From an uncultured Candidatus Bathyarchaeia archaeon (GTDB lineage: Archaea > Thermoproteota > Bathyarchaeia > Hecatellales > Hecatellaceae): a stretch of DNA of 64,000 bases. The position numbers and the translations under genes were made by a program. The stretch is taken from assembly GCA_964569845.1 (NCBI GenBank), contig CAZMUQ010000001.1, positions 3,994 through 67,993 of the forward strand, written 5' to 3'. Below, piece by piece: positions 2,783 through 43,071 of the stretch (the first letter of the stretch is position 1; each line of letters begins with the position of its first letter). The notes under the pieces were generated by a model that was not told where the DNA came from, did not search any database, and saw only the letters and a program-made list of their open reading frames with translations.

Positions 2783-4156
2783 TTAACCATAAAAAATGTT
2801 TTTCTCTGCATAATGAGCTATATCTTCAGCTATTATTCTTGCCTTCTCAACATTTTGATGGAAACCTACTGCTAAACCCATTCTTCTATGAGGATATGCT
2901 TTAGGCTTGCCAAAATACCATATATCTCCATGATAGCCTTTACGCTTTATAAAATCTTTAACATTGTTTAAACTCCAACCTTTAACTTCAACTTCATCCT
3001 TTCCATTAAAATCTGGTGCTAAAATTACATGTGCAACTCCGTAAACATCTTTTCTGCAAAAATCCAAATCTTCAGGATTAATTCTTAAGCCAAGGGTTGA
3101 ATATAGATGAAGGGCCCCCTCATCCATGTTTAACATCCAACGTGTAATCATTCCAGTATCATGAGGTCTGTTTGCAACTTCATTATTGTAAACTTTTCCA
3201 TCTACAACAAACTGTTCGATAGCAAAAACACCTAAACCTCCAATAAACTCAGCAATAATTTTAGCATATTCTCCGCACTTCTTTTTAACGTCATCAGGAA
3301 TTGTTGCTGGAAGCCAGCTTTCATGGTAAGTTGCTCCAGGTCTTTTATGTTCAACTGGTGGCGGTAAACTTGTAACAATTTTACCGTTTTCATCAAAATG
3401 TCTAATTGCAAGTTGCATAATTTCTGTCCCTCTTTCCTTTAAATCTTGTAAAAACTTTTCAACAGTTACTTGTCCACCAAAACCTCTAGCATGCTCCCTA
3501 GCATAATCATATGCTTTTTCTAAATCATCCCTATTTTTTACTATTGTTGTTCCATGTCCACTTGAAGTCATAACAGGCTTTACTATAACAGGTAATCCAA
3601 AATCTTTTGCAATCTTTTTAACTTCCTCCTCAGATTCTGCATAACCCCAGTCAACTCTTGGAACCTTTAACTTGTCAAACATAAGCTTTGTAAGATGTCT
3701 ATCCATGCAAACTAGCGGCCCATAAGGGGTTGACATAACTTTATAACCTTCCTCAACACCAAGTTTATAGGCTCTAAAAGTATCTATCCTTTCTATTTCC
3801 AAATAGATTACGTGAGGATGATCTGGGTTTGGAACATATTTTTTTATGTTTTTCTCAAGAATATCTCCATTAAGCATATCAAAGCACTCATAATAGTCTG
3901 CAACATCTTGAGCTGGGAAACCTTCATACCTATCAAAAACTACCGTTTTAACTCCTCCTTTAACTCCACCTAAGCATCTTTTAGCTGCAGTTAAAACAAG
4001 GTCTCCAAGTTCTCCTCCTCCAACAGAAATAAATGTAACAGGTTCTTTCAATTTAATTTCATCAAGAGGTGAAAGTTTTCTTTCATATTCATGTTTGTAT
4101 TCCTCTACTTCCTTTAAGATTTTAATTCTATCCTCAACCTTAAAATGAAACGTCAA
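2783..4156 (-). CDS. purT: formate-dependent phosphoribosylglycinamide formyltransferase (GAR transformylase 2, ATP-grasp)
   Basis: 457 aa. It carries an N-terminal Rossmann-like GGGELG motif, ATP-grasp motifs (VIVKPVMTSSGHGTTIV), the PurT-specific EVANRPHDTGM segment, and a C-terminal HRRMGLAV segment. Confidence 0.8.
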   Translation of the reverse strand: MTFHFKVEDRIKILKEVEEYKHEYERKLSPLDEIKLKEPVTFISVGGGELGDLVLTAAKRCLGGVKGGVKTVVFDRYEGFPAQDVADYYECFDMLNGDILEKNIKKYVPNPDHPHVIYLEIERIDTFRAYKLGVEEGYKVMSTPYGPLVCMDRHLTKLMFDKLKVPRVDWGYAESEEEVKKIAKDFGLPVIVKPVMTSSGHGTTIVKNRDDLEKAYDYAREHARGFGGQVTVEKFLQDLKERGTEIMQLAIRHFDENGKIVTSLPPPVEHKRPGATYHESWLPATIPDDVKKKCGEYAKIIAEFIGGLGVFAIEQFVVDGKVYNNEVANRPHDTGMITRWMLNMDEGALHLYSTLGLRINPEDLDFCRKDVYGVAHVILAPDFNGKDEVEVKGWSLNNVKDFIKRKGYHGDIWYFGKPKAYPHRRMGLAVGFHQNVEKARIIAEDIAHYAEKNIFYG

Positions 4157-4241: not shown

Positions 4242-5288
4242 ATGGATAAAATTACCCTTGCTCATGGTGCTGGCGGAAGCATAATGCAAAAACTCATTAA
4301 AGAATATATCTTGAAAATCCTTGGTGGAAGCAATTTTGAGGTTCCTTTAGAAGCTTTAGATGATTCTGCTGTTGTTGATGGAGTAGTCTTAAAGAGCGAT
4401 TCTCACACAGTTAAACCATTATTCTTTCCTGGAGGGGATATTGGAAGATTAGCTATTAGTGGAACTGTTAATGATATTGCTGTTATGGGTGCTGAACCTA
4501 TAGCTTTAGCTGCAGGATTTATTTTGGAGGAGGGTTTTCCAATATCAGATTTTAAGAAAATTCTTGAAAGTATGAAGGAAACATGTAAAGAAGCTGGTGT
4601 TTATGTTGTTACAGGGGATACAAAAGTTTTAGAGAAGGGTTCTCTTGATAAGTTTATCATAAATACTTCTGGTATTGGAAGAAGAACAAAGCTTTTAGAT
4701 AAAAATTTTGAGGAAGTCAAGAAATACCGTAAAATAAGTTCACGCTGGCTTTTAGATTCAAATCTGCGTGATGGTGATAAAATAATCGTTAGTGGAACTA
4801 TCGGGGATCATGGTTTAGCCATCCTATCTTTTAGGGAGGGTTATAGCTTCAGTAATAAAATTGTTTCTGATGTTGCTCCATTAAATAAGGTTATAATGAA
4901 AATTTTAGAAGTTGGTGGTATTGTAAGCATGAAAGACCCAACAAGAGGGGGCCTTGCAAATGCATTAAATGAGTGGAGTGAAAAATCTAGAGTTGGAATT
5001 CTCGTATATGAGGAGCAGATACCTATACGTGAAGATGTACGTTCAGCATGTGAAATGCTTGGCATAGACCCATTAGAAGTTGGGAATGAAGGAAAAATTA
5101 TTATAGGAGTTGTAAAGGAGAAGGCTGAAGAAATTTTAGAGGTATTAAGAAAAACGAAGGAGGGAAAAGATGCTCAAATTATTGGTGAAGTTAGAAAAGA
5201 TTTTGAGGGAGTTGTACTTGAAACTGTTGTTGGTGGGAAAAGAATAATTCCTCCACCTGTAGGAGATCCTGTTCCAAGGATTTGTTAA
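4242..5288 (+). CDS. hypE: [NiFe]-hydrogenase maturation factor HypE (PurM-like, carboxamido dehydratase)
   Basis: The N-terminus reads MDKITLAHGAGGSIMQKLI. The protein has the PurM/AIR-synthase-like fold and the diagnostic C-terminal PRIC motif (…PVPRIC*). Confidence 0.9.
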   Translation: MDKITLAHGAGGSIMQKLIKEYILKILGGSNFEVPLEALDDSAVVDGVVLKSDSHTVKPLFFPGGDIGRLAISGTVNDIAVMGAEPIALAAGFILEEGFPISDFKKILESMKETCKEAGVYVVTGDTKVLEKGSLDKFIINTSGIGRRTKLLDKNFEEVKKYRKISSRWLLDSNLRDGDKIIVSGTIGDHGLAILSFREGYSFSNKIVSDVAPLNKVIMKILEVGGIVSMKDPTRGGLANALNEWSEKSRVGILVYEEQIPIREDVRSACEMLGIDPLEVGNEGKIIIGVVKEKAEEILEVLRKTKEGKDAQIIGEVRKDFEGVVLETVVGGKRIIPPPVGDPVPRIC

Positions 5289-8851: not shown

Positions 8852-11119
8852 TTAACCTAAAAAGCTAGCTATAAAAGCTTGTCCTAATGAAATTCCCCCA
8901 TCTCCAGCTGGAACTTTACTGTTAACTACAAATTTAAACCCTCTTTTTTCAACAATCTTCTTAATTGTTAAAGTTATATGTTTATTGTATGCTACTCCAC
9001 CAGAGAAACCTATAATCCTAACTCCCAATTCTTCAGCTTTCTCAATTGCTGCTTGAGCTAAACTTTTACTAATGTATTCTTGAGCAGAGTAAGCAAGATC
9101 CTTAGCAGAATATTTTCCAAGGTTTTCAAAAATTTCTAAAACAATATTTTCTGTGTTAATAATGTTACCATCTATTTTAGGTTCAACTTTAAGTATATCC
9201 TTACCGTTTAAAGCGTAAGATTCAAGCTTTATTGCAGGTTCTCCTTCATAGGTTCGTTCATAACATACTCCAAGTAATGCTGCAATAGCATCTAAAACTC
9301 TACCGCAACTTGTGGTCCATGTAAATTTTCCAGTTTTAGCCTGCCTTATTATTATCTCTGCTTCTGCCTTTCCAAACGGCAAAAAACTTGATTTTGAGTA
9401 AATCCAATCCTCAATTTTTGAATGTTCTCTTAAAATTCCTACAACCATTCTTAATGGGTAAAGTGTTGCCTTATCCCCTCCAATCATTGGTTGTTCTTGA
9501 AGATGAGTTAAACGTTTAATTTCACCCTCAACCCAATAAAGAATTTCACCACCCCATGCTTTTCCATCTAAACCATAACCAAAACCATCGCAAACAATGC
9601 CAATAGCTTCATCTAAACCATACTCTGCTACAAGCGAACCTAGATGAGCATAATGATGTTGAATAGGAAAAACTTCGCATCCAAACTTTTCAGCAAGCTT
9701 ACTAGCTAAACTTGTTGTATTAAATTTTGGATGCAAATCACATGCAATATATTGAACTTTTACATTTGTTAAGTTTAGAAGATGAGTTACAGCATGCTCA
9801 AGGTAGCTTAAGGTTTCAACATTTTTAACATCACCAATATATTGAGTTAAGAAGGCTTTATCTTCATTTAATATGCATCCTGTAACATTTTCTTCAGCAC
9901 CTAAAGCTAAAACAGGTTTTTTAACCCTATTTTTTAAAAATATTGGAGCTGGAGCGTAACCCCTAGATCTACGAATTATTGTAGGAATTTTATCATGAAC
10001 CCTAACAACGGAGTCATCACATCTTTGAGCAATCCTTCTATTGTGAAGGAGAAAGTAGTCAACTGTTGAACCCAGTCTTCTATATGCTTCCTCATTATCT
10101 ACAACTATAGGTTCACTTGGAGGATTTGCGCTTGTCATGATAAATGCTGGTTCTTTAACATTATCAAAAAGCATATAATGAAGACCTGTATAGGGTAACA
10201 TAACACCAATATTATGGAGTTTTGGAGCAATTTCCTCAGAAAGGTAGTAATTATCGCTTTTTTCAAGTAAAACTATTGGTCTAATGTAGGATGTTAAAAG
10301 TTTTTCTTCCTCCTTGCTAACTTTAGCAAAAGTTTTCACAGCTTCAAGACTTTTAGCCATCACTGCAAACGGTTTTTGTGCTCGATGTTTAACTTTTCTA
10401 AGTCTAATTATAGGCTCAGATTTTAAGGTTGAAGTTGCAATATGAAAACCTCCATTACCTTTAATAGCAACAATAAATCCTTCTTCTACAAGCTTTCCAG
10501 CTTCCCTAATAGGATCTTTGCACTCAACATTTTCCTTATCTTTTGTTGTTAAATAAACTCTTGGTCCACATGCATGGCATGCTATTGTTTGAGCATGAAA
10601 GCGACGGTTTAAAGGGTTAACATACTCTTCTTTACATTTTTCACACATCGGAAAATCTACCATTGTAGTGTTTTCTCTATCGTAGGGTAATTTTTCAATC
10701 ACTGTATATCTGGGCCCGCAATCTGTACATGTGATAAAAAAATAATCATATCTCCTATTCTTTGAATCTTTTAATTCCTCTAAACATTTACTGCAGATCG
10801 ATATGTCTGGCGGGATAACCAATCCTGAGAATCTTTTTTCCTCTAAACTTCTATATATCCTGAACTCTTTAAACTCGCCTTTATCTCTAGAAAATTTTAC
10901 TTTTAACTTGTAAATTTGTGCTAATGGAGGTTTTTCGCTTCTTATTAATTTTATAAAATGCTTAATGTTTTTTTTATCACCTTCAACAATAATTTCAACA
11001 GTTGCATCTCCACAATTACGTACAAAACCCTTAAGATTCTCTTTTACAGCAGTTCTATAGATAAATGGTCTAAATCCAACACCTTGCACAATACCAGTAA
11101 CAGTTATTTCTGCACGCAA
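8852..11119 (-). CDS. hypF: carbamoyltransferase HypF
   Basis: 755 aa. It has an N-terminal acylphosphatase domain (VQGVGFRPFIYR), two zinc-finger CxxC…CxxC pairs, a YrdC-like domain and a C-terminal Kae1/carbamoyltransferase domain. Confidence 0.9.
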   Translation of the reverse strand: MRAEITVTGIVQGVGFRPFIYRTAVKENLKGFVRNCGDATVEIIVEGDKKNIKHFIKLIRSEKPPLAQIYKLKVKFSRDKGEFKEFRIYRSLEEKRFSGLVIPPDISICSKCLEELKDSKNRRYDYFFITCTDCGPRYTVIEKLPYDRENTTMVDFPMCEKCKEEYVNPLNRRFHAQTIACHACGPRVYLTTKDKENVECKDPIREAGKLVEEGFIVAIKGNGGFHIATSTLKSEPIIRLRKVKHRAQKPFAVMAKSLEAVKTFAKVSKEEEKLLTSYIRPIVLLEKSDNYYLSEEIAPKLHNIGVMLPYTGLHYMLFDNVKEPAFIMTSANPPSEPIVVDNEEAYRRLGSTVDYFLLHNRRIAQRCDDSVVRVHDKIPTIIRRSRGYAPAPIFLKNRVKKPVLALGAEENVTGCILNEDKAFLTQYIGDVKNVETLSYLEHAVTHLLNLTNVKVQYIACDLHPKFNTTSLASKLAEKFGCEVFPIQHHYAHLGSLVAEYGLDEAIGIVCDGFGYGLDGKAWGGEILYWVEGEIKRLTHLQEQPMIGGDKATLYPLRMVVGILREHSKIEDWIYSKSSFLPFGKAEAEIIIRQAKTGKFTWTTSCGRVLDAIAALLGVCYERTYEGEPAIKLESYALNGKDILKVEPKIDGNIINTENIVLEIFENLGKYSAKDLAYSAQEYISKSLAQAAIEKAEELGVRIIGFSGGVAYNKHITLTIKKIVEKRGFKFVVNSKVPAGDGGISLGQAFIASFLG

Positions 11120-15104: not shown

Positions 15105-15740
15105 TTGGACATAAAAGTTGTTGGTATAGATCTTGCAGGCAGTATAAAAAGGCCAACAGGATTCTGCTTAATGGATGAAAATCTTAAAGTTAAAACCTCT
15201 ATCCTATATGAAGACGAGGAAATAGTGGGAAAAACTGTTTTAGCAAAACCTACTATTGTAAGTATTGATGCCCCCCTTGCTTTACCTAAGGGTAGATGTT
15301 GTCTTAGAGATGATTGTTCATGTAGGAAAGCTGGACATTTAAGGGAATGTGATAAAGTTTTACTTAAGATGAGGATTAAATTTTTCCCCTTAACTCTTGG
15401 TCCTATGCGTAAATTGACATTAAGAGGTATAAAGATTAAGGAGGAATTAAACAGTAAGGGTTTGAGTGTAATTGAAAGTTTTCCATATAGTGTAAAGAAA
15501 ATTTTAGGTTTTCCAGAGAAAAAGCAAGGATTGGATAAGTTTAGGGAGGCATTAAAAAGTTTAGGTGTTGATGGAGATGTTAACAAGAAGGATATCAGTG
15601 TTCATGAGCTTGATGCAATAACTTCAGCATTAGTTGGATTAATGTACCTTAAAGGTGAAGCTTTAGAAATAGGAGATCCTTCAGAAGCTTTAATGGTTAT
15701 TCCAAACCCTGAAATTTTCAAATACCAGTATAAACCATAA
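15105..15740 (+). CDS. DUF429-family protein (RNase H-like fold, predicted nuclease) with an inserted cysteine cluster
   Basis: DUF429 hallmark motifs are present: VVGIDLAG…GFCLMDE, VSIDAPLALP and RECDKVL…FFP. An inserted CCLRDDCSCRKAGH segment looks like a zinc-binding site. Confidence 0.6.
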   Translation: MDIKVVGIDLAGSIKRPTGFCLMDENLKVKTSILYEDEEIVGKTVLAKPTIVSIDAPLALPKGRCCLRDDCSCRKAGHLRECDKVLLKMRIKFFPLTLGPMRKLTLRGIKIKEELNSKGLSVIESFPYSVKKILGFPEKKQGLDKFREALKSLGVDGDVNKKDISVHELDAITSALVGLMYLKGEALEIGDPSEALMVIPNPEIFKYQYKP

Positions 15741-15772
15741 AGCTAATCTAAAAATTAACAACTATAATATCT

Positions 15773-15832
15773 GGGGCGATGAAGAATCTAGCCCAACAGA
15801 AAGAGTGAAGAAGATCTTGAGTACTGAGCCCC
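15773..15832 (+). ncRNA. candidate C/D-box sRNA (2'-O-methylation guide)
   Basis: The sequence reads GGGGC-g-AUGAAGA (C)-aucuagcccaa (11 nt)-CAGA (D')-aaga-GUGAAGA (C')-agaucuugagua (12 nt)-CUGA (D)-GCCCC. It has a perfect 5-bp terminal stem, and both C-type boxes are the same RUGAAGA variant. It is about 60 nt long and lies in a 211-nt intergenic gap on the same strand as the flanking genes. Confidence 0.55.
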
Positions 15833-15951
15833 TTATTTAACCCTTAGAAACATAGTGTCTTAGCTAGATGATTAAGCTTCAAAGCTATCTTCTAAATTCT
15901 CCTAAATTTTTAAATATGTTCAAGGTTTTTTGATACTTAAAGTTTCATTTT

Positions 15952-17091
15952 GTGCCTATGTCCTTTAAAAATTTAACCTCAAACAGTAATCTACGTGAAG
16001 TTTTTCTCTTACTTGATAAGCTTGGAGAATACTCCTTTGAAGTTGGTCCTATAAGACCTCCAAGTGAAGGTGGAAGCTTTTCTCTGCTTTTAAGGGTTAC
16101 AAGAAATTGTCCCTGGCGGTTATGTAGCTTTTGCTATGGCACTCCTTATGGCAGAGCAAAATTTGAGTTAAGGCCTGTTGATGAGGTTAAAAAAGATATA
16201 GATAATGTTAAAGCAATTATTGATTTGCTAACAAAGATATCTTTTAAACTTGGTTTGGATGGAAAAATTAACTGGAATCTTTGGAGAATTATTTCAACTC
16301 TAGATCCAACATTAAACTACAATTTTAACGTAGTAAACATCATCAACTGGATTTCCTCGGGAGGAAAAACAGTTTTCCTTCAGGATGCAGATAGCTTAAT
16401 AATTCCAGCTAAAGATTTAGCTGAAATATTAAAGTATATTAAGTTAGTTTTTCCGCAAGTTAGAAGAATAACATCTTATGCTAGAGCTAAAACACTTTCA
16501 AGAAAAAGTTTTGAAGATTTAAAGCTTCTACGTGAAGCAGGTCTTTCTAGGCTTCATGTTGGTTTAGAAAGTGGGGATGATGAAGTTTTAAGATTAATTA
16601 ATAAGGGTGTAACTGCAGAAGAGCATATAAAAGCTGGAAGCCTTGTTATTAAGGCTGGAATAGAGCTATCTGAATATGTTATGCCTGGTGTTGCAGGTAA
16701 AGAATTGTCTGAACAACATGCTAAAAATACTGCTAGGGTATTAAACACTATAAATCCTAACTATGTAAGAATGAGAACTTTTGTTCCTATAGCTGGGACA
16801 CCTCTCTACAAGGAATATAAGGAAGGCCGCTTTAAACTTCTCTCCCCTCATGAATGTTTGATGGAGATTAGAGTTATGGTTGAAAACTTAAATATTAATG
16901 GGAAATTATGCTTTGACCATTTTGCAAACCCTTCATTTAAAGGTAATATTCCAGTTTTTAGGCAGGATTATGAAGGTTATAAACTTCCAGAAGAAAAACA
17001 GCTAATCTTAGAAACTATAGATAAGTCGTTAAAGATTGATGAATCAAAGTTCAGGTGGACTGAAGAACTTGTAGGTTTAGGGCATCTCTAA
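15952..17091 (+). CDS. radical SAM protein with non-canonical Cx4Cx2C cluster spacing (ELP3/YhcC-like archaeal subfamily)
   Basis: The Fe-S motif is RNCPWRLCSFCYG. The radical SAM core has a glycine-rich SAM-binding region (VFLQDADSL, HVGLESGDDEVL). It is 379 aa long. Confidence 0.65.
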   Translation: MPMSFKNLTSNSNLREVFLLLDKLGEYSFEVGPIRPPSEGGSFSLLLRVTRNCPWRLCSFCYGTPYGRAKFELRPVDEVKKDIDNVKAIIDLLTKISFKLGLDGKINWNLWRIISTLDPTLNYNFNVVNIINWISSGGKTVFLQDADSLIIPAKDLAEILKYIKLVFPQVRRITSYARAKTLSRKSFEDLKLLREAGLSRLHVGLESGDDEVLRLINKGVTAEEHIKAGSLVIKAGIELSEYVMPGVAGKELSEQHAKNTARVLNTINPNYVRMRTFVPIAGTPLYKEYKEGRFKLLSPHECLMEIRVMVENLNINGKLCFDHFANPSFKGNIPVFRQDYEGYKLPEEKQLILETIDKSLKIDESKFRWTEELVGLGHL

Positions 17092-41229: not shown

Positions 41230-43071
41230 ATGAGAATACTCTTCATTCATGCAGACAAATTTAGCTATATTGCTAAAGAAAAAGCATTAAAAGAAGCTGA
41301 AGATCTGAATGAAAATAGTAAATCATATTCAACATCTGAAGTTTTGGTAGTTTTTTGTGCTGTAGAAAAAGTTGATGAAAAAAACCCAGAACAAATAGTA
41401 GAAAGAGCAGTAGATACTATTAAAGATGTTGCTGAAACTGTTAAAGCAGAAAATATTGTTATTTATCCTTATGCCCACCTTTCATCCGAACTTGCATCAC
41501 CATCAAATGCAAAAAAAATCCTTAAAGCATTAGAGGAAACACTTAGTAAAGTAAATTTTAATGTTAATCTTGCTCCTTTTGGTTGGTATAAAAGCTTTAG
41601 TATAGAATGTAAAGGACATCCTCTCTCAGAACTTTCACGTACAATAACACCTGAAGACGTTACGTATCTTAAACCATCACAAAAAAATATCTATAAGGTC
41701 TTAACTCCAAAAATGGAGATTATAGACCCTGTTTATTACCAGTTTAAAGATGGTGAAGAAGAATTTAAGATTCTTGTCCTAAAGGAAGCCTTAGGAAGAG
41801 AACTGCCAGGTGGGGAAAAACCAAAATTTCTTGATTACTGTAAAAAGTTTGGTATTGAGTGGGAACAGTTTTCTGATGTTGGCCACATGAGGTATGGTCC
41901 TGAGGCTAGCTTAATCTTTGAGCTTGTATCAGATTATGCATCTAAACTTGTTGATTCTTTAGGAATTTCCGTGTATCATGTTCGTGGAACAAATATGTTT
42001 GATCTTTCAATTCCGGCAGTTAATGAACATGCTAAACTTTTTGGTGGAAGACTTTATGAGATACGAACAGATAAACGAAGGTTAGTTTTAAGGTATGCTG
42101 CATGCCATCAGCAATTTGCAATGGTTAAAGATTGGATTATTAGCTATAAAGATTTACCATTTGGAGTTTATGAGCTTGCTGATAGTTACAGATTTGAGCA
42201 GGAGGGTGAACTTTTACTTTGCTTTAGAGTTAGAAAACTCCACATGCCAGATCTACATATATTTTGTAAAGATATTGAGGAAGCTAAGTTTTTTGCTTTA
42301 AAAGTGCATGAAAAAATATATGATGAAATTAAGAAGCTTAAAAGGGATTATGTTTCCTTGTACAATACAACTGAGAGCTTTTTTAATAGAAATATAGATT
42401 TCTTTAAAAAGCTTGTTGAAATTGAAGGTAAACCTATACTCCTATGTTTTGTTCCTGAAAATATCTACTACTGGGTTTTAAATGTTGAATATCACATAAT
42501 TGATGAACTTAAACGTCCAAGAGAAATTGCAACATTTCAAATAGATGTTGGAAATGCAAAAAGATTTAACATTACATATACCACCTCAAGCGGAGATAAA
42601 GCTTACCCAATAATAATTCATACCGCCCTTATAGGCACTATTGAAAGATACATTTTCACAATTCTTGATTCTGCTGTGAAAGATGAAAAATTAGGAAAAT
42701 TACCAATGCTTCCAGTATGGCTTTCACCAGTTCAAGTTAGAATTATACCCATTTCAAGGGATCAACTTAACTTTTCACTAAAAATTTTGGAGGAGCTTGA
42801 AAAGGAGAAAATTAGAGTTGATATTGATGATTTAGACGAAACTTTAGCAAAAAAGGTTAGAAGAGCTGAAATGTCTTGGATACCGTATATTGTTGTTATT
42901 GGAGATGAGGAAGTTAAAAGTGGGAGGTTTGATGTAAGGTTTAGGGAAACTGGTACTCGCAAAAAAATTAACTTAAAAGAACTTATTAGTGAAGTAAAAA
43001 GTAAAATTGATGGATATCCTTGGAGACCGCTACATTTACCAAGGCAAGTTAGTTTAAGACCAGTATATTAG
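41230..43071 (+). CDS. thrS: threonyl-tRNA synthetase, archaeal type, with an N-terminal D-aminoacyl-tRNA-deacylase-like editing domain
   Basis: It has an N-terminal MRILFIHADKFSY editing domain, a class II core and a C-terminal anticodon-binding domain. It is 613 aa long. Confidence 0.9.
   Translation: MRILFIHADKFSYIAKEKALKEAEDLNENSKSYSTSEVLVVFCAVEKVDEKNPEQIVERAVDTIKDVAETVKAENIVIYPYAHLSSELASPSNAKKILKALEETLSKVNFNVNLAPFGWYKSFSIECKGHPLSELSRTITPEDVTYLKPSQKNIYKVLTPKMEIIDPVYYQFKDGEEEFKILVLKEALGRELPGGEKPKFLDYCKKFGIEWEQFSDVGHMRYGPEASLIFELVSDYASKLVDSLGISVYHVRGTNMFDLSIPAVNEHAKLFGGRLYEIRTDKRRLVLRYAACHQQFAMVKDWIISYKDLPFGVYELADSYRFEQEGELLLCFRVRKLHMPDLHIFCKDIEEAKFFALKVHEKIYDEIKKLKRDYVSLYNTTESFFNRNIDFFKKLVEIEGKPILLCFVPENIYYWVLNVEYHIIDELKRPREIATFQIDVGNAKRFNITYTTSSGDKAYPIIIHTALIGTIERYIFTILDSAVKDEKLGKLPMLPVWLSPVQVRIIPISRDQLNFSLKILEELEKEKIRVDIDDLDETLAKKVRRAEMSWIPYIVVIGDEEVKSGRFDVRFRETGTRKKINLKELISEVKSKIDGYPWRPLHLPRQVSLRPVY

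Follow-up and report, generated by a model that had tools for sequence, protein, structure and literature searches.

A predicted box C/D guide RNA 3' of a DUF429 gene in Bathyarchaeia, with a likely target at the wobble position of tRNA-Leu(CAA)

The guides of archaeal box C/D sRNAs are 10-12 nt long, and the residue that is methylated is the one that pairs with the fifth nucleotide upstream of box D or D', known as the N+5 rule (PMC7994747). In Pyrococcus abyssi, sR47, an sRNA of 64 nt, uses its D guide to methylate C34 of tRNA-Leu(CAA), as demonstrated in vitro with an RNP reconstituted from L7Ae, Nop5 and fibrillarin (PMC3413156, PMC5558902); the target reads ...GACUCAAGAUCC... and the substrate oligonucleotide was CCACAGACUCAAGAUCCCCUCC (PMC3413156). 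Ribose methylation of the wobble nucleotide is also C/D-guided in the case of the archaeal pre-tRNA-Trp intron, which specifies Cm34 and Um39, and of the Pyrococcus guides for C34 or U34 of tRNA-Met and tRNA-Leu(UAA) (PMC7994747, PMC6313347). Beyond a few cultured thermophiles, C/D box sRNAs are poorly annotated, and the literature that we searched held no mention of C/D sRNAs from Bathyarchaeota.

Here we analyse a 60-nt element within a 64-kb stretch of DNA, hereafter the window. On its sequence features the element is very probably a box C/D guide RNA gene of a Bathyarchaeota archaeon, and we consider it likely that this gene and a D guide directed to C34 of tRNA-Leu(CAA) hold together as one reading. 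Read from the window, the element spans positions 15773-15832 of the + strand as GGGGC-G-ATGAAGA-ATCTAGCCCAA-CAGA-AAGA-GTGAAGA-AGATCTTGAGTA-CTGA-GCCCC, or, as RNA, GGGGC-G-AUGAAGA-AUCUAGCCCAA-CAGA-AAGA-GUGAAGA-AGAUCUUGAGUA-CUGA-GCCCC (Table 1). An earlier note on this DNA had described the same layout, boxes, 5-bp terminal stem, 11- and 12-nt guides and 4-nt spacer, and the sequence reads exactly as it claimed. It had also placed the element between DUF429 and radical SAM genes on the same strand, and both ORFs indeed lie on +, the element starting 32 nt past the DUF429-like stop codon and preceding the radical SAM ORF. The C box is near the 5' end and the D box near the 3' end, the internal boxes follow in the order C-D'-C'-D, the guides and the short D'-C' loop have lengths usual for the class, and a terminal stem with k-turn geometry is present at the sequence level.

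Table 1 Features of the 60-nt element and its neighbours, in window coordinates
Feature	Positions	Strand	Remarks
DUF429 gene, 211-aa ORF	15105..15740	+	RNase H-fold nuclease-like; relatives named DUF429 or with PF04250
Terminal stem, 5' arm GGGGC	15773..15777	+	Canonical stem of the C/D k-turn; partner 15828-15832
Spacer G, single nt	15778..15778	+	With A15779 and U15780 makes the 3-nt k-turn bulge; G, T or A among homologues (alignment, six lineages)
C box AUGAAGA	15779..15785	+	RUGAUGA variant with A at position 5; columns T-G-A-A-G-A unchanged across six homologues (alignment)
D' guide AUCUAGCCCAA, 11 nt	15786..15796	+	C15792 is the fifth nucleotide upstream of D'
D' box CAGA	15797..15800	+	Degenerate CUGA; CAGA in four lineages, CUGA in Hecatella and CAZNLG01
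D'-C' spacer AAGA	15801..15804	+	Loop of the internal k-loop; 4 nt
C' box GUGAAGA	15805..15811	+	Homologue variants AUGAAGU, GUGAUGU, AUGACGU; UGA and the next G constant among six homologues (alignment)
D guide AGAUCUUGAGUA, 12 nt	15812..15823	+	G15819 is the fifth nucleotide upstream of D
D box CUGA	15824..15827	+	CUGA in five lineages, CAGA in Hecatella
Terminal stem, 3' arm GCCCC	15828..15832	+	Partner of 15773-15777
T-rich tract TTATTTA	15833..15839	+	Directly 3' of the element
Radical SAM ORF	start 15952 (GTG) or 15958 (ATG)	+	The ATG start is that of the gene calls

The wider gene context (window ~5100-25800, equal to L001 1-20636) is ordinary and syntenic with that of the 86% relative. 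Hydrogenase maturation genes (hypA/B/C/D/E/F-like) form one cluster and purine biosynthesis genes (purE, purD, two purF-like genes and purL) another, and an NfeD-slipin pair is present as well. Within the element, a palindrome, AAGATCTT, lies at window positions 15809-15818, the junction of C' box and D guide. The two guides are partly self-complementary (AUCUAG in one, AGAUCU in the other), which accounts for the pairing predicted inside the element in its MFE fold. This fold is no more stable than those of shuffled sequences (z = -0.9) and lends no support; a lack of extra fold stability is normal among C/D RNAs.

Both strands of the window were scanned with the regular expression RTGAWGA-N10-13-NWGA-N2-8-RTGAWGA-N10-13-CTGA, which demands neither a terminal stem nor an intergenic position. 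This four-box pattern occurs at one site in the 64 kb and in 0 of 200 dinucleotide-preserving shuffles, while a much looser box pattern was present in 1 of 200. The window contains no tRNA gene and no Rfam match at gathering score, and a covariance model of the family scores 86.5 bits at the element against 13.3 bits for the runner-up. As far as these tools tell, the element is thus the only RNA-gene-like one in the window, as the earlier note had held; that note had also proposed a covariance-model check, and in it the curated Rfam models all stayed below their gathering scores. The family model detected no additional copies in 26 other archaeal loci.

At permissive thresholds, an Rfam search over 351 nt around the element returned 12 matches. 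Ten of these are C/D box families (sR1, sR17, sR39, sR60, sR23, sR49, sR7, sR14 and two eukaryotic SNORDs), all far under their gathering scores and nine of them aligned end to end; the best, sR1, reached 25.4 bits (E 1.2e-4 over 351 nt) against a gathering score of 45. Because no Rfam family matches at threshold, the element represents an uncurated family: it is within a known class, the archaeal box C/D sRNAs, yet outside every curated Rfam family. Two weak C/D-like matches elsewhere in the window, at 42320-42374 (+) and 10510-10569 (-), comprise a C...D-only pattern, of which 1.8 are expected by chance, and one 13.3-bit match. The second falls within the HypF gene by coordinate mapping to L001, and we judged both to be chance occurrences and rejected them as C/D sRNAs.

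Read against established knowledge of k-turns (PMC4644070, PMC7994747), the C/D motif offers GGGGC/GCCCC as its stem, G-A-U as its bulge and sheared G.A and A.G pairs, followed by A.U at 3b.3n, where the canonical C/D motif has U.U, and by G-C at 4b.4n. The internal motif of D' and C' reads in the same way but with A.A at 3b.3n. A concern raised by the earlier note, that the AUGAAGA C box might not fit a k-turn, appears unfounded: the box departs from the consensus once, U5 to A, which affects the 3b.3n position alone, and GAUGAaGA stands in the Rfam consensus of sR17 and sR39, so that the variant is already known in curated archaeal families. The element thus looks k-turn-compatible, and binding of L7Ae is predicted.

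We fetched contigs encoding DUF429 relatives and inspected the sequence 3' of DUF429. The element lies directly 3' of the gene in the window and in five further Bathyarchaeia lineages, always on the same strand and 22-100 nt past the stop: GCA_052246995.1 / GCA_052246955.1 (L004-6; 86% DUF429 identity), GCA_003604315.1 (L007-8; 70%), GCA_964573765.1 (L376-7; 65%), ENA ERZ27227320 (L009; 64%) and Candidatus Hecatella orcuttiae GCA_002009985.2 (L012-13; 58%). The gene downstream of it changes by lineage (radical SAM, HSP20 region, FAD oxidoreductase and others), and the element therefore travels with DUF429 rather than with the intergenic region as a whole; DUF429 is a conserved neighbour and a possible co-transcription partner. 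The window locus itself (15700-15960, 261 nt aligned) is 100% identical in three independent assemblies. Window proteins match those of NCBI 'Candidatus Bathyarchaeota archaeon' MAGs at 90-100% identity, and Candidatus Hecatellales and Candidatus Hecatella orcuttiae are among the sources of the DUF429 relatives.

Across the six lineages, the alignment is constant at the boxes and in both guide cores, U(C/U)UAGCCC for D' and GAUCUUGAGU for D; variation occurs in the nucleotide that adjoins a D or D' box, in the guide nucleotide that directly follows the C box and in the flanks. At the D-guide position that would face tRNA position 41, the window, PIYK01, the L009 lineage and CAZNLG01 have A, and GCA_052246995.1 and Hecatella have G. 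The D'-C' spacer, at about 4-9 nt, is unalignable among homologues, as expected of an unconstrained loop, and so are the flanks, with a very different base composition in Hecatella. Fixed boxes and guides with a free spacer and free flanks are the pattern expected of a C/D box sRNA. In Hecatella the boxes are swapped, the degenerate pair being C/D (GUGAAGA/CAGA) and the canonical pair C'/D' (GUGAUGU/CUGA). In the terminal stem, 88.9% of cells are paired across the six homologues, against at most 55.6% with the partner column slid. Compensatory double changes affect two core pairs, the outer one (G-C, A-U or U-A) and, in L376, an inner one (G-C to A-U); as many double-change cells as observed, or more, arise in 5 of 500 shuffles. 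This covariation is supportive of the pairing, although with six sequences it stops short of conclusive.

These data bear on whether the resemblance could be a matter of chance, without function. The lack of an Rfam match at threshold would fit such a reading, which we regard as effectively refuted by the absence of the box layout from the shuffles, by retention of the element down to 58% DUF429 identity, amid unalignable flanks and a very different base composition, and by the compensatory changes in the stem. Instead, box order, spacing, k-turn-compatible geometry, conservation in six lineages and the match of the D guide to tRNA-Leu(CAA) described below uphold the C/D-box sRNA proposed in the earlier note.

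The same alignment speaks to a coding alternative, in which the ATG of the C box opens a short ORF for a micropeptide, MKNLAQQKE in the window. An ATG or GTG at the C box does start an ORF of 8-17 codons in 6 of 6 sequences, and one substitution, CTA to TTA, is synonymous. However, the stop lies in one box or another depending on the lineage, which makes the ORF anything from 8 to 17 codons long, the substitutions are mostly non-synonymous (N/T/S, Q/H, QQ/LL), and in 4 of 6 lineages the highest conservation lies past the stop codon, in the D guide and D box. We consider a micropeptide extremely improbable, and the guide RNA reading is pursued below.

The reverse complement of the conserved D guide, ACUCAAGAUC(U), looks like an anticodon arm in which the anticodon is CAA and position 37 is G. 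A scan that took a single genome from each GTDB species looked for ACTCAAGATCT with the T-arm sequence GGTTCRAATCC downstream; the pattern contained the 11-mer by design, so the scan shows that such tRNAs exist in the phylum, and its matches are not statistically independent of the guide. There were at least 120 matches, nearly all of those listed being archaeal class II tRNAs, and ARAGORN called at least 108 tRNA-Leu genes across the scanned loci. The matches listed cover Thermoplasmata, Methanosarcinales, Nitrososphaeria (with introns), DPANN and two Bathyarchaeia genomes, L173 and L212, and the matches in these last two were confirmed as Bathyarchaeia tRNA-Leu(CAA).

Guide positions 2-12 upstream of the D box form 11 contiguous Watson-Crick pairs with A31-U41 of the L173 and L212 tRNAs, the fifth position facing C34 and the first, which is variable in homologues, facing G30. 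Pairing of at least 9 bp between guide and stable RNA, with the N+5 residue paired, is thus seen for the D guide with tRNAs from other genomes of the phylum. By our own estimate, an 11-mer would match somewhere in ~8 kb of stable RNA by chance with a probability of ~0.002, a figure that leaves aside the placement of N+5 at a position known to be guided. Applying the N+5 rule to the D guide would place the methyl group on the wobble nucleotide C34. On this complementarity, seen with tRNAs from relatives of the carrier genomes, the D guide probably targets C34 of tRNA-Leu(CAA); since the 11-mer was part of the pattern and the tRNAs come from other genomes, the claim is limited to tRNA-Leu(CAA) of the phylum rather than of the same genome.

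Several tRNA-bearing contigs have further features. The Bathyarchaeia contig L173 carries a TPP riboswitch at 4490-4601 (-), at 69.3 bits and above its gathering score. In L167 (380-5453), from the unclassified archaeal MAG CALHLD01, the tRNA-Leu(CAA) gene immediately precedes a linked 16S-23S operon in divergent orientation, and in several Methanomassiliicoccales / Thermoplasmata (L232, L234, L250, L251) it lies within a few kb of the 3' end of 23S.

The antisense match also weighs on a cis-acting reading, in which the element would be a k-turn in the 3' UTR of the DUF429 mRNA, bound by L7Ae to control that mRNA, with no guide released. The element's constant place 22-100 nt past the DUF429 stop, on the same strand, agrees with this reading, and L7Ae binding to mRNAs has been described in archaea (PMC5539422). 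Yet a regulatory k-turn requires neither a second k-loop, 11-12-nt spacers nor conserved guides, and it leaves unexplained that the invariant 10-mer GAUCUUGAGU is exactly antisense to the tRNA anticodon arm with N+5 on C34. We therefore consider it very unlikely and retain the guide RNA reading.

The target implied by the core of the D' guide is UGGGCUAG(A/G), to which the complete 16S of L167 has a near match, CAGGGCUAGG. We scanned metagenomes for TGGGCTAGR anchored by GGGAGAGG and GGCGAAGGC and obtained at least 120 contigs. Among the matches listed, 90 of 120 contigs are archaeal-type 16S, nearly all with NUGGGCUAGG at the site, and contigs with CUAGA are mostly bacterial, archaeal 16S reading ...CUAGG and rarely CUAGA. 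Bacterial 16S genes (L344 2634-4185 and L354 1-1137) share the UUGGGCUAGAGG...GGGAGAGG...GGCGAAGGC motif with the archaeal site, so that scans of the site by motif alone mix the two domains.

Bathyarchaeota-type 16S contigs were picked with sequences taken for those of MCG528F, MCG732R and MCG493. The literature supports the Bathyarchaeota specificity of the MCG primer pair and not the sequences used here, and the assignment of the 16S contigs to Bathyarchaeota thus rests on proteins encoded in L361 and L314. In L361, EF-2 and two other proteins cluster at >=90% with NCBI Bathyarchaeota proteins. In L314, the Alba protein encoded beside the 16S is listed by NCBI under Bathyarchaeota; of its 120 best relatives, all those with a name are labelled Bathyarchaeota or Bathyarchaeia, and none comes from the carrier genomes. 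Among the contigs listed, 14 match these primer and probe sequences with 0-1 mismatch, and 12 of the 14 read UUGGGCUAGG, with UU before GGG matching the AA of the guide. In several Bathyarchaeota contigs the 16S is not followed by 23S and Alba (PF01918) flanks it on the opposite strand (five contigs: L361 540-2549, L314 8694-10627, L268, L287 and L357); an EF-2 gene also follows the 16S in L361, alone among the contigs checked.

The L361 16S comes from a genome other than the carriers. With its positions 610-619, which correspond to E. coli 646-655 (UUGGGCUAGG), the D' guide makes ten pairs, 9 of them Watson-Crick and 1 G.U. The D' box can contribute one more, between its C and the preceding G of the 16S, and N+5 falls on the equivalent of E. 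coli G650. The duplex lies within the published prediction criteria of at least 9 bp with at most one mismatch and no more than 2 G.U pairs (PMC4644070). The D'-adjacent guide variants AA (as in the window), AU (PIYK01) and UG (CAZNLG01) all have pairing 16S variants in nature (UU; GU or AU; CA, in L167), seen in genomes other than the carriers. Position 10 of the guide makes a G.U wobble in all six lineages, where strong selection would be expected to yield C, and we estimate the chance of such a 10-bp match at ~0.02-0.06. We put forward 16S E. coli 646-655 as a candidate target of the D' guide whose chances fall just short of even. The earlier note's expectation that the guides could be matched to tRNA or rRNA was therefore borne out for the D guide, with tRNA-Leu(CAA) of other Bathyarchaeia, and for the D' guide as far as a candidate 16S site.

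Other D' targets were tried and set aside. A site on the same tRNA-Leu(CAA) upstream of the anticodon gave 0 matches in GTDB genomes, and none of the recovered tRNA-Leu genes (at least 108) contains a D' target. A site at 16S ~730, a lead from the MCG732R primer, gave 0 matches in metagenomes, and the exact UUGGGCUAGA in 16S was carried by L344 and L354, both bacterial. A recurring TGGGCTAGA (L328, L338, L372) lies, by eye, just upstream of a possible protein start and was taken as chance. The archaeal 23S, 16S and 5S of L167, L232, L234, L250, L251 and L212 held no better site than the 16S one, and within the window and the syntenic loci the guides match only the antisense strand of the element itself.

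It is a realistic alternative, albeit one we hold below an even chance, that the element is a genuine C/D sRNA in which the D guide alone methylates, at C34 of tRNA-Leu, the D' guide being an orphan, an rRNA-folding chaperone or directed to another target such as 23S or another tRNA. P. abyssi sR47 is without a 16S target (PMC5558902), in Pyrobaculum only ~20% of the sRNAs with tRNA targets have two functional guides (PMC6009581), and the 16S duplex, which always holds a G.U pair, could be chance. Against this, the D' core is as conserved as the D guide in the six lineages, which argues for a conserved partner of the D' guide, the 16S site agrees with the published prediction criteria (PMC4644070), and each D'-adjacent variant has its natural 16S counterpart.

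Taking the element as a guide RNA with a tRNA-Leu(CAA) target, we propose the following mechanism. With the 5-bp terminal stem closing them, the AUGAAGA C box and the CUGA D box would form a k-turn, and the CAGA D' box with the GUGAAGA C' box an internal k-loop. L7Ae would bind both motifs, and Nop5 and fibrillarin would then assemble, as in the established C/D RNP mechanism. The D guide would pair with tRNA-Leu(CAA) 31-41, to judge from its complementarity to the tRNAs of other Bathyarchaeia genomes, and fibrillarin would methylate the ribose of the wobble C34, by the N+5 rule and the Pyrococcus sR47 precedent. The D' guide may well pair with the 16S equivalent of E. coli 646-655 and lead to methylation at the G650 equivalent, a step for which the chances are roughly balanced.

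The RNA could be trimmed from a transcript that reads through from DUF429, or it could have its own promoter. Co-transcription with trimming is common among archaeal C/D sRNAs (PMC7994747, PMC6009581), and by eye the six homologues have no consistent TATA-like element at a fixed upstream distance. The TTATTTA after the element is possibly an archaeal oligo-T termination signal; T-rich runs lie within ~20 nt 3' of the element in 5 of 6 lineages.

Other stable-RNA-like sequences were seen 3' of DUF429. In three other Bathyarchaeia lineages, with DUF429 57-58% identical, an intron-containing class II tRNA gene occupies this place (L014 10647-10760, the same in L015, and L378 about 3650-3760); it is tRNA-Ser(CGA)-like by eye and was not called by ARAGORN. 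Its exon-intron junction CUCGAG|AUCU is similar to ACUCAAGAUCU, the D-guide target, and could form a duplex with the D guide that includes one G.U pair. In another Bathyarchaeia lineage (L379 3706-3760, L380 2284-2338), a C/D-like stretch of ~44 nt, CGATGAAGC...CTTCTGAGC, has no recognisable C' box or terminal stem and may be a degenerate or different sRNA. A speculative and, in our view, unlikely extension is that stable-RNA genes 3' of DUF429 reflect a functional link, DUF429 being a nuclease that would process the RNAs of its own transcript, and the sRNA a mixed guide for the tRNA-Leu wobble position and 16S.

The element provides a concrete conserved sRNA family for Hecatellales-like Bathyarchaeia. 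With it comes a prediction open to test: tRNA-Leu(CAA) would carry Cm34, and 16S possibly Gm at the position that corresponds to E. coli G650. Those who study k-turns gain UGAAGA and CAGA as naturally occurring box variants. Our understanding of the C/D system is unchanged by it; the gain lies in annotation and in specific predictions for an uncultured phylum.

Among curated families, the element resembles Rfam sR1 (RF01152), sR17 (RF01144) and sR39 (RF01122) in aligning with them end to end through boxes and spacing, but the guides are unrelated and the scores are 25.4, 18.4 and 16.8 bits against gathering scores of 45, 36 and 50; no match in the permissive search was attributable to sR47. 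It shares C/D-guided ribose methylation of a wobble nucleotide with the pre-tRNA-Trp intron guide and the Pyrococcus tRNA-Met and tRNA-Leu(UAA) guides and, unlike the tRNA-Trp guide, which lies inside the intron of its own target, is free-standing beside a protein-coding gene. Bacterial TrmL, the Cm34/cmnm5Um34 methyltransferase of tRNA-Leu CAA/UAA (PMC4615657), yields the same product at the same tRNA position, but is a stand-alone protein enzyme that uses no guide RNA and has no evolutionary relation to the element. Like sR47, the element would be a dual-box archaeal C/D sRNA whose D guide is antisense to the anticodon loop of tRNA-Leu(CAA) with N+5 at C34, and the guide implied by the P. 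abyssi target ACUCAAGAUCC is identical to the D guides here at 10-11 of 12 nt, a likeness judged from that implied guide and the shared target rather than from the sR47 sequence. The two differ in phylum (Bathyarchaeia versus Thermococcales), in the UGAAGA and CAGA box variants of the element, and in the D' guide, which here is conserved and fits 16S, whereas sR47 is reported without a 16S target. The comparison suggests that guide RNAs direct wobble methylation of tRNA-Leu(CAA) in a distant archaeal phylum as well as in the Thermococcales, where this is known.
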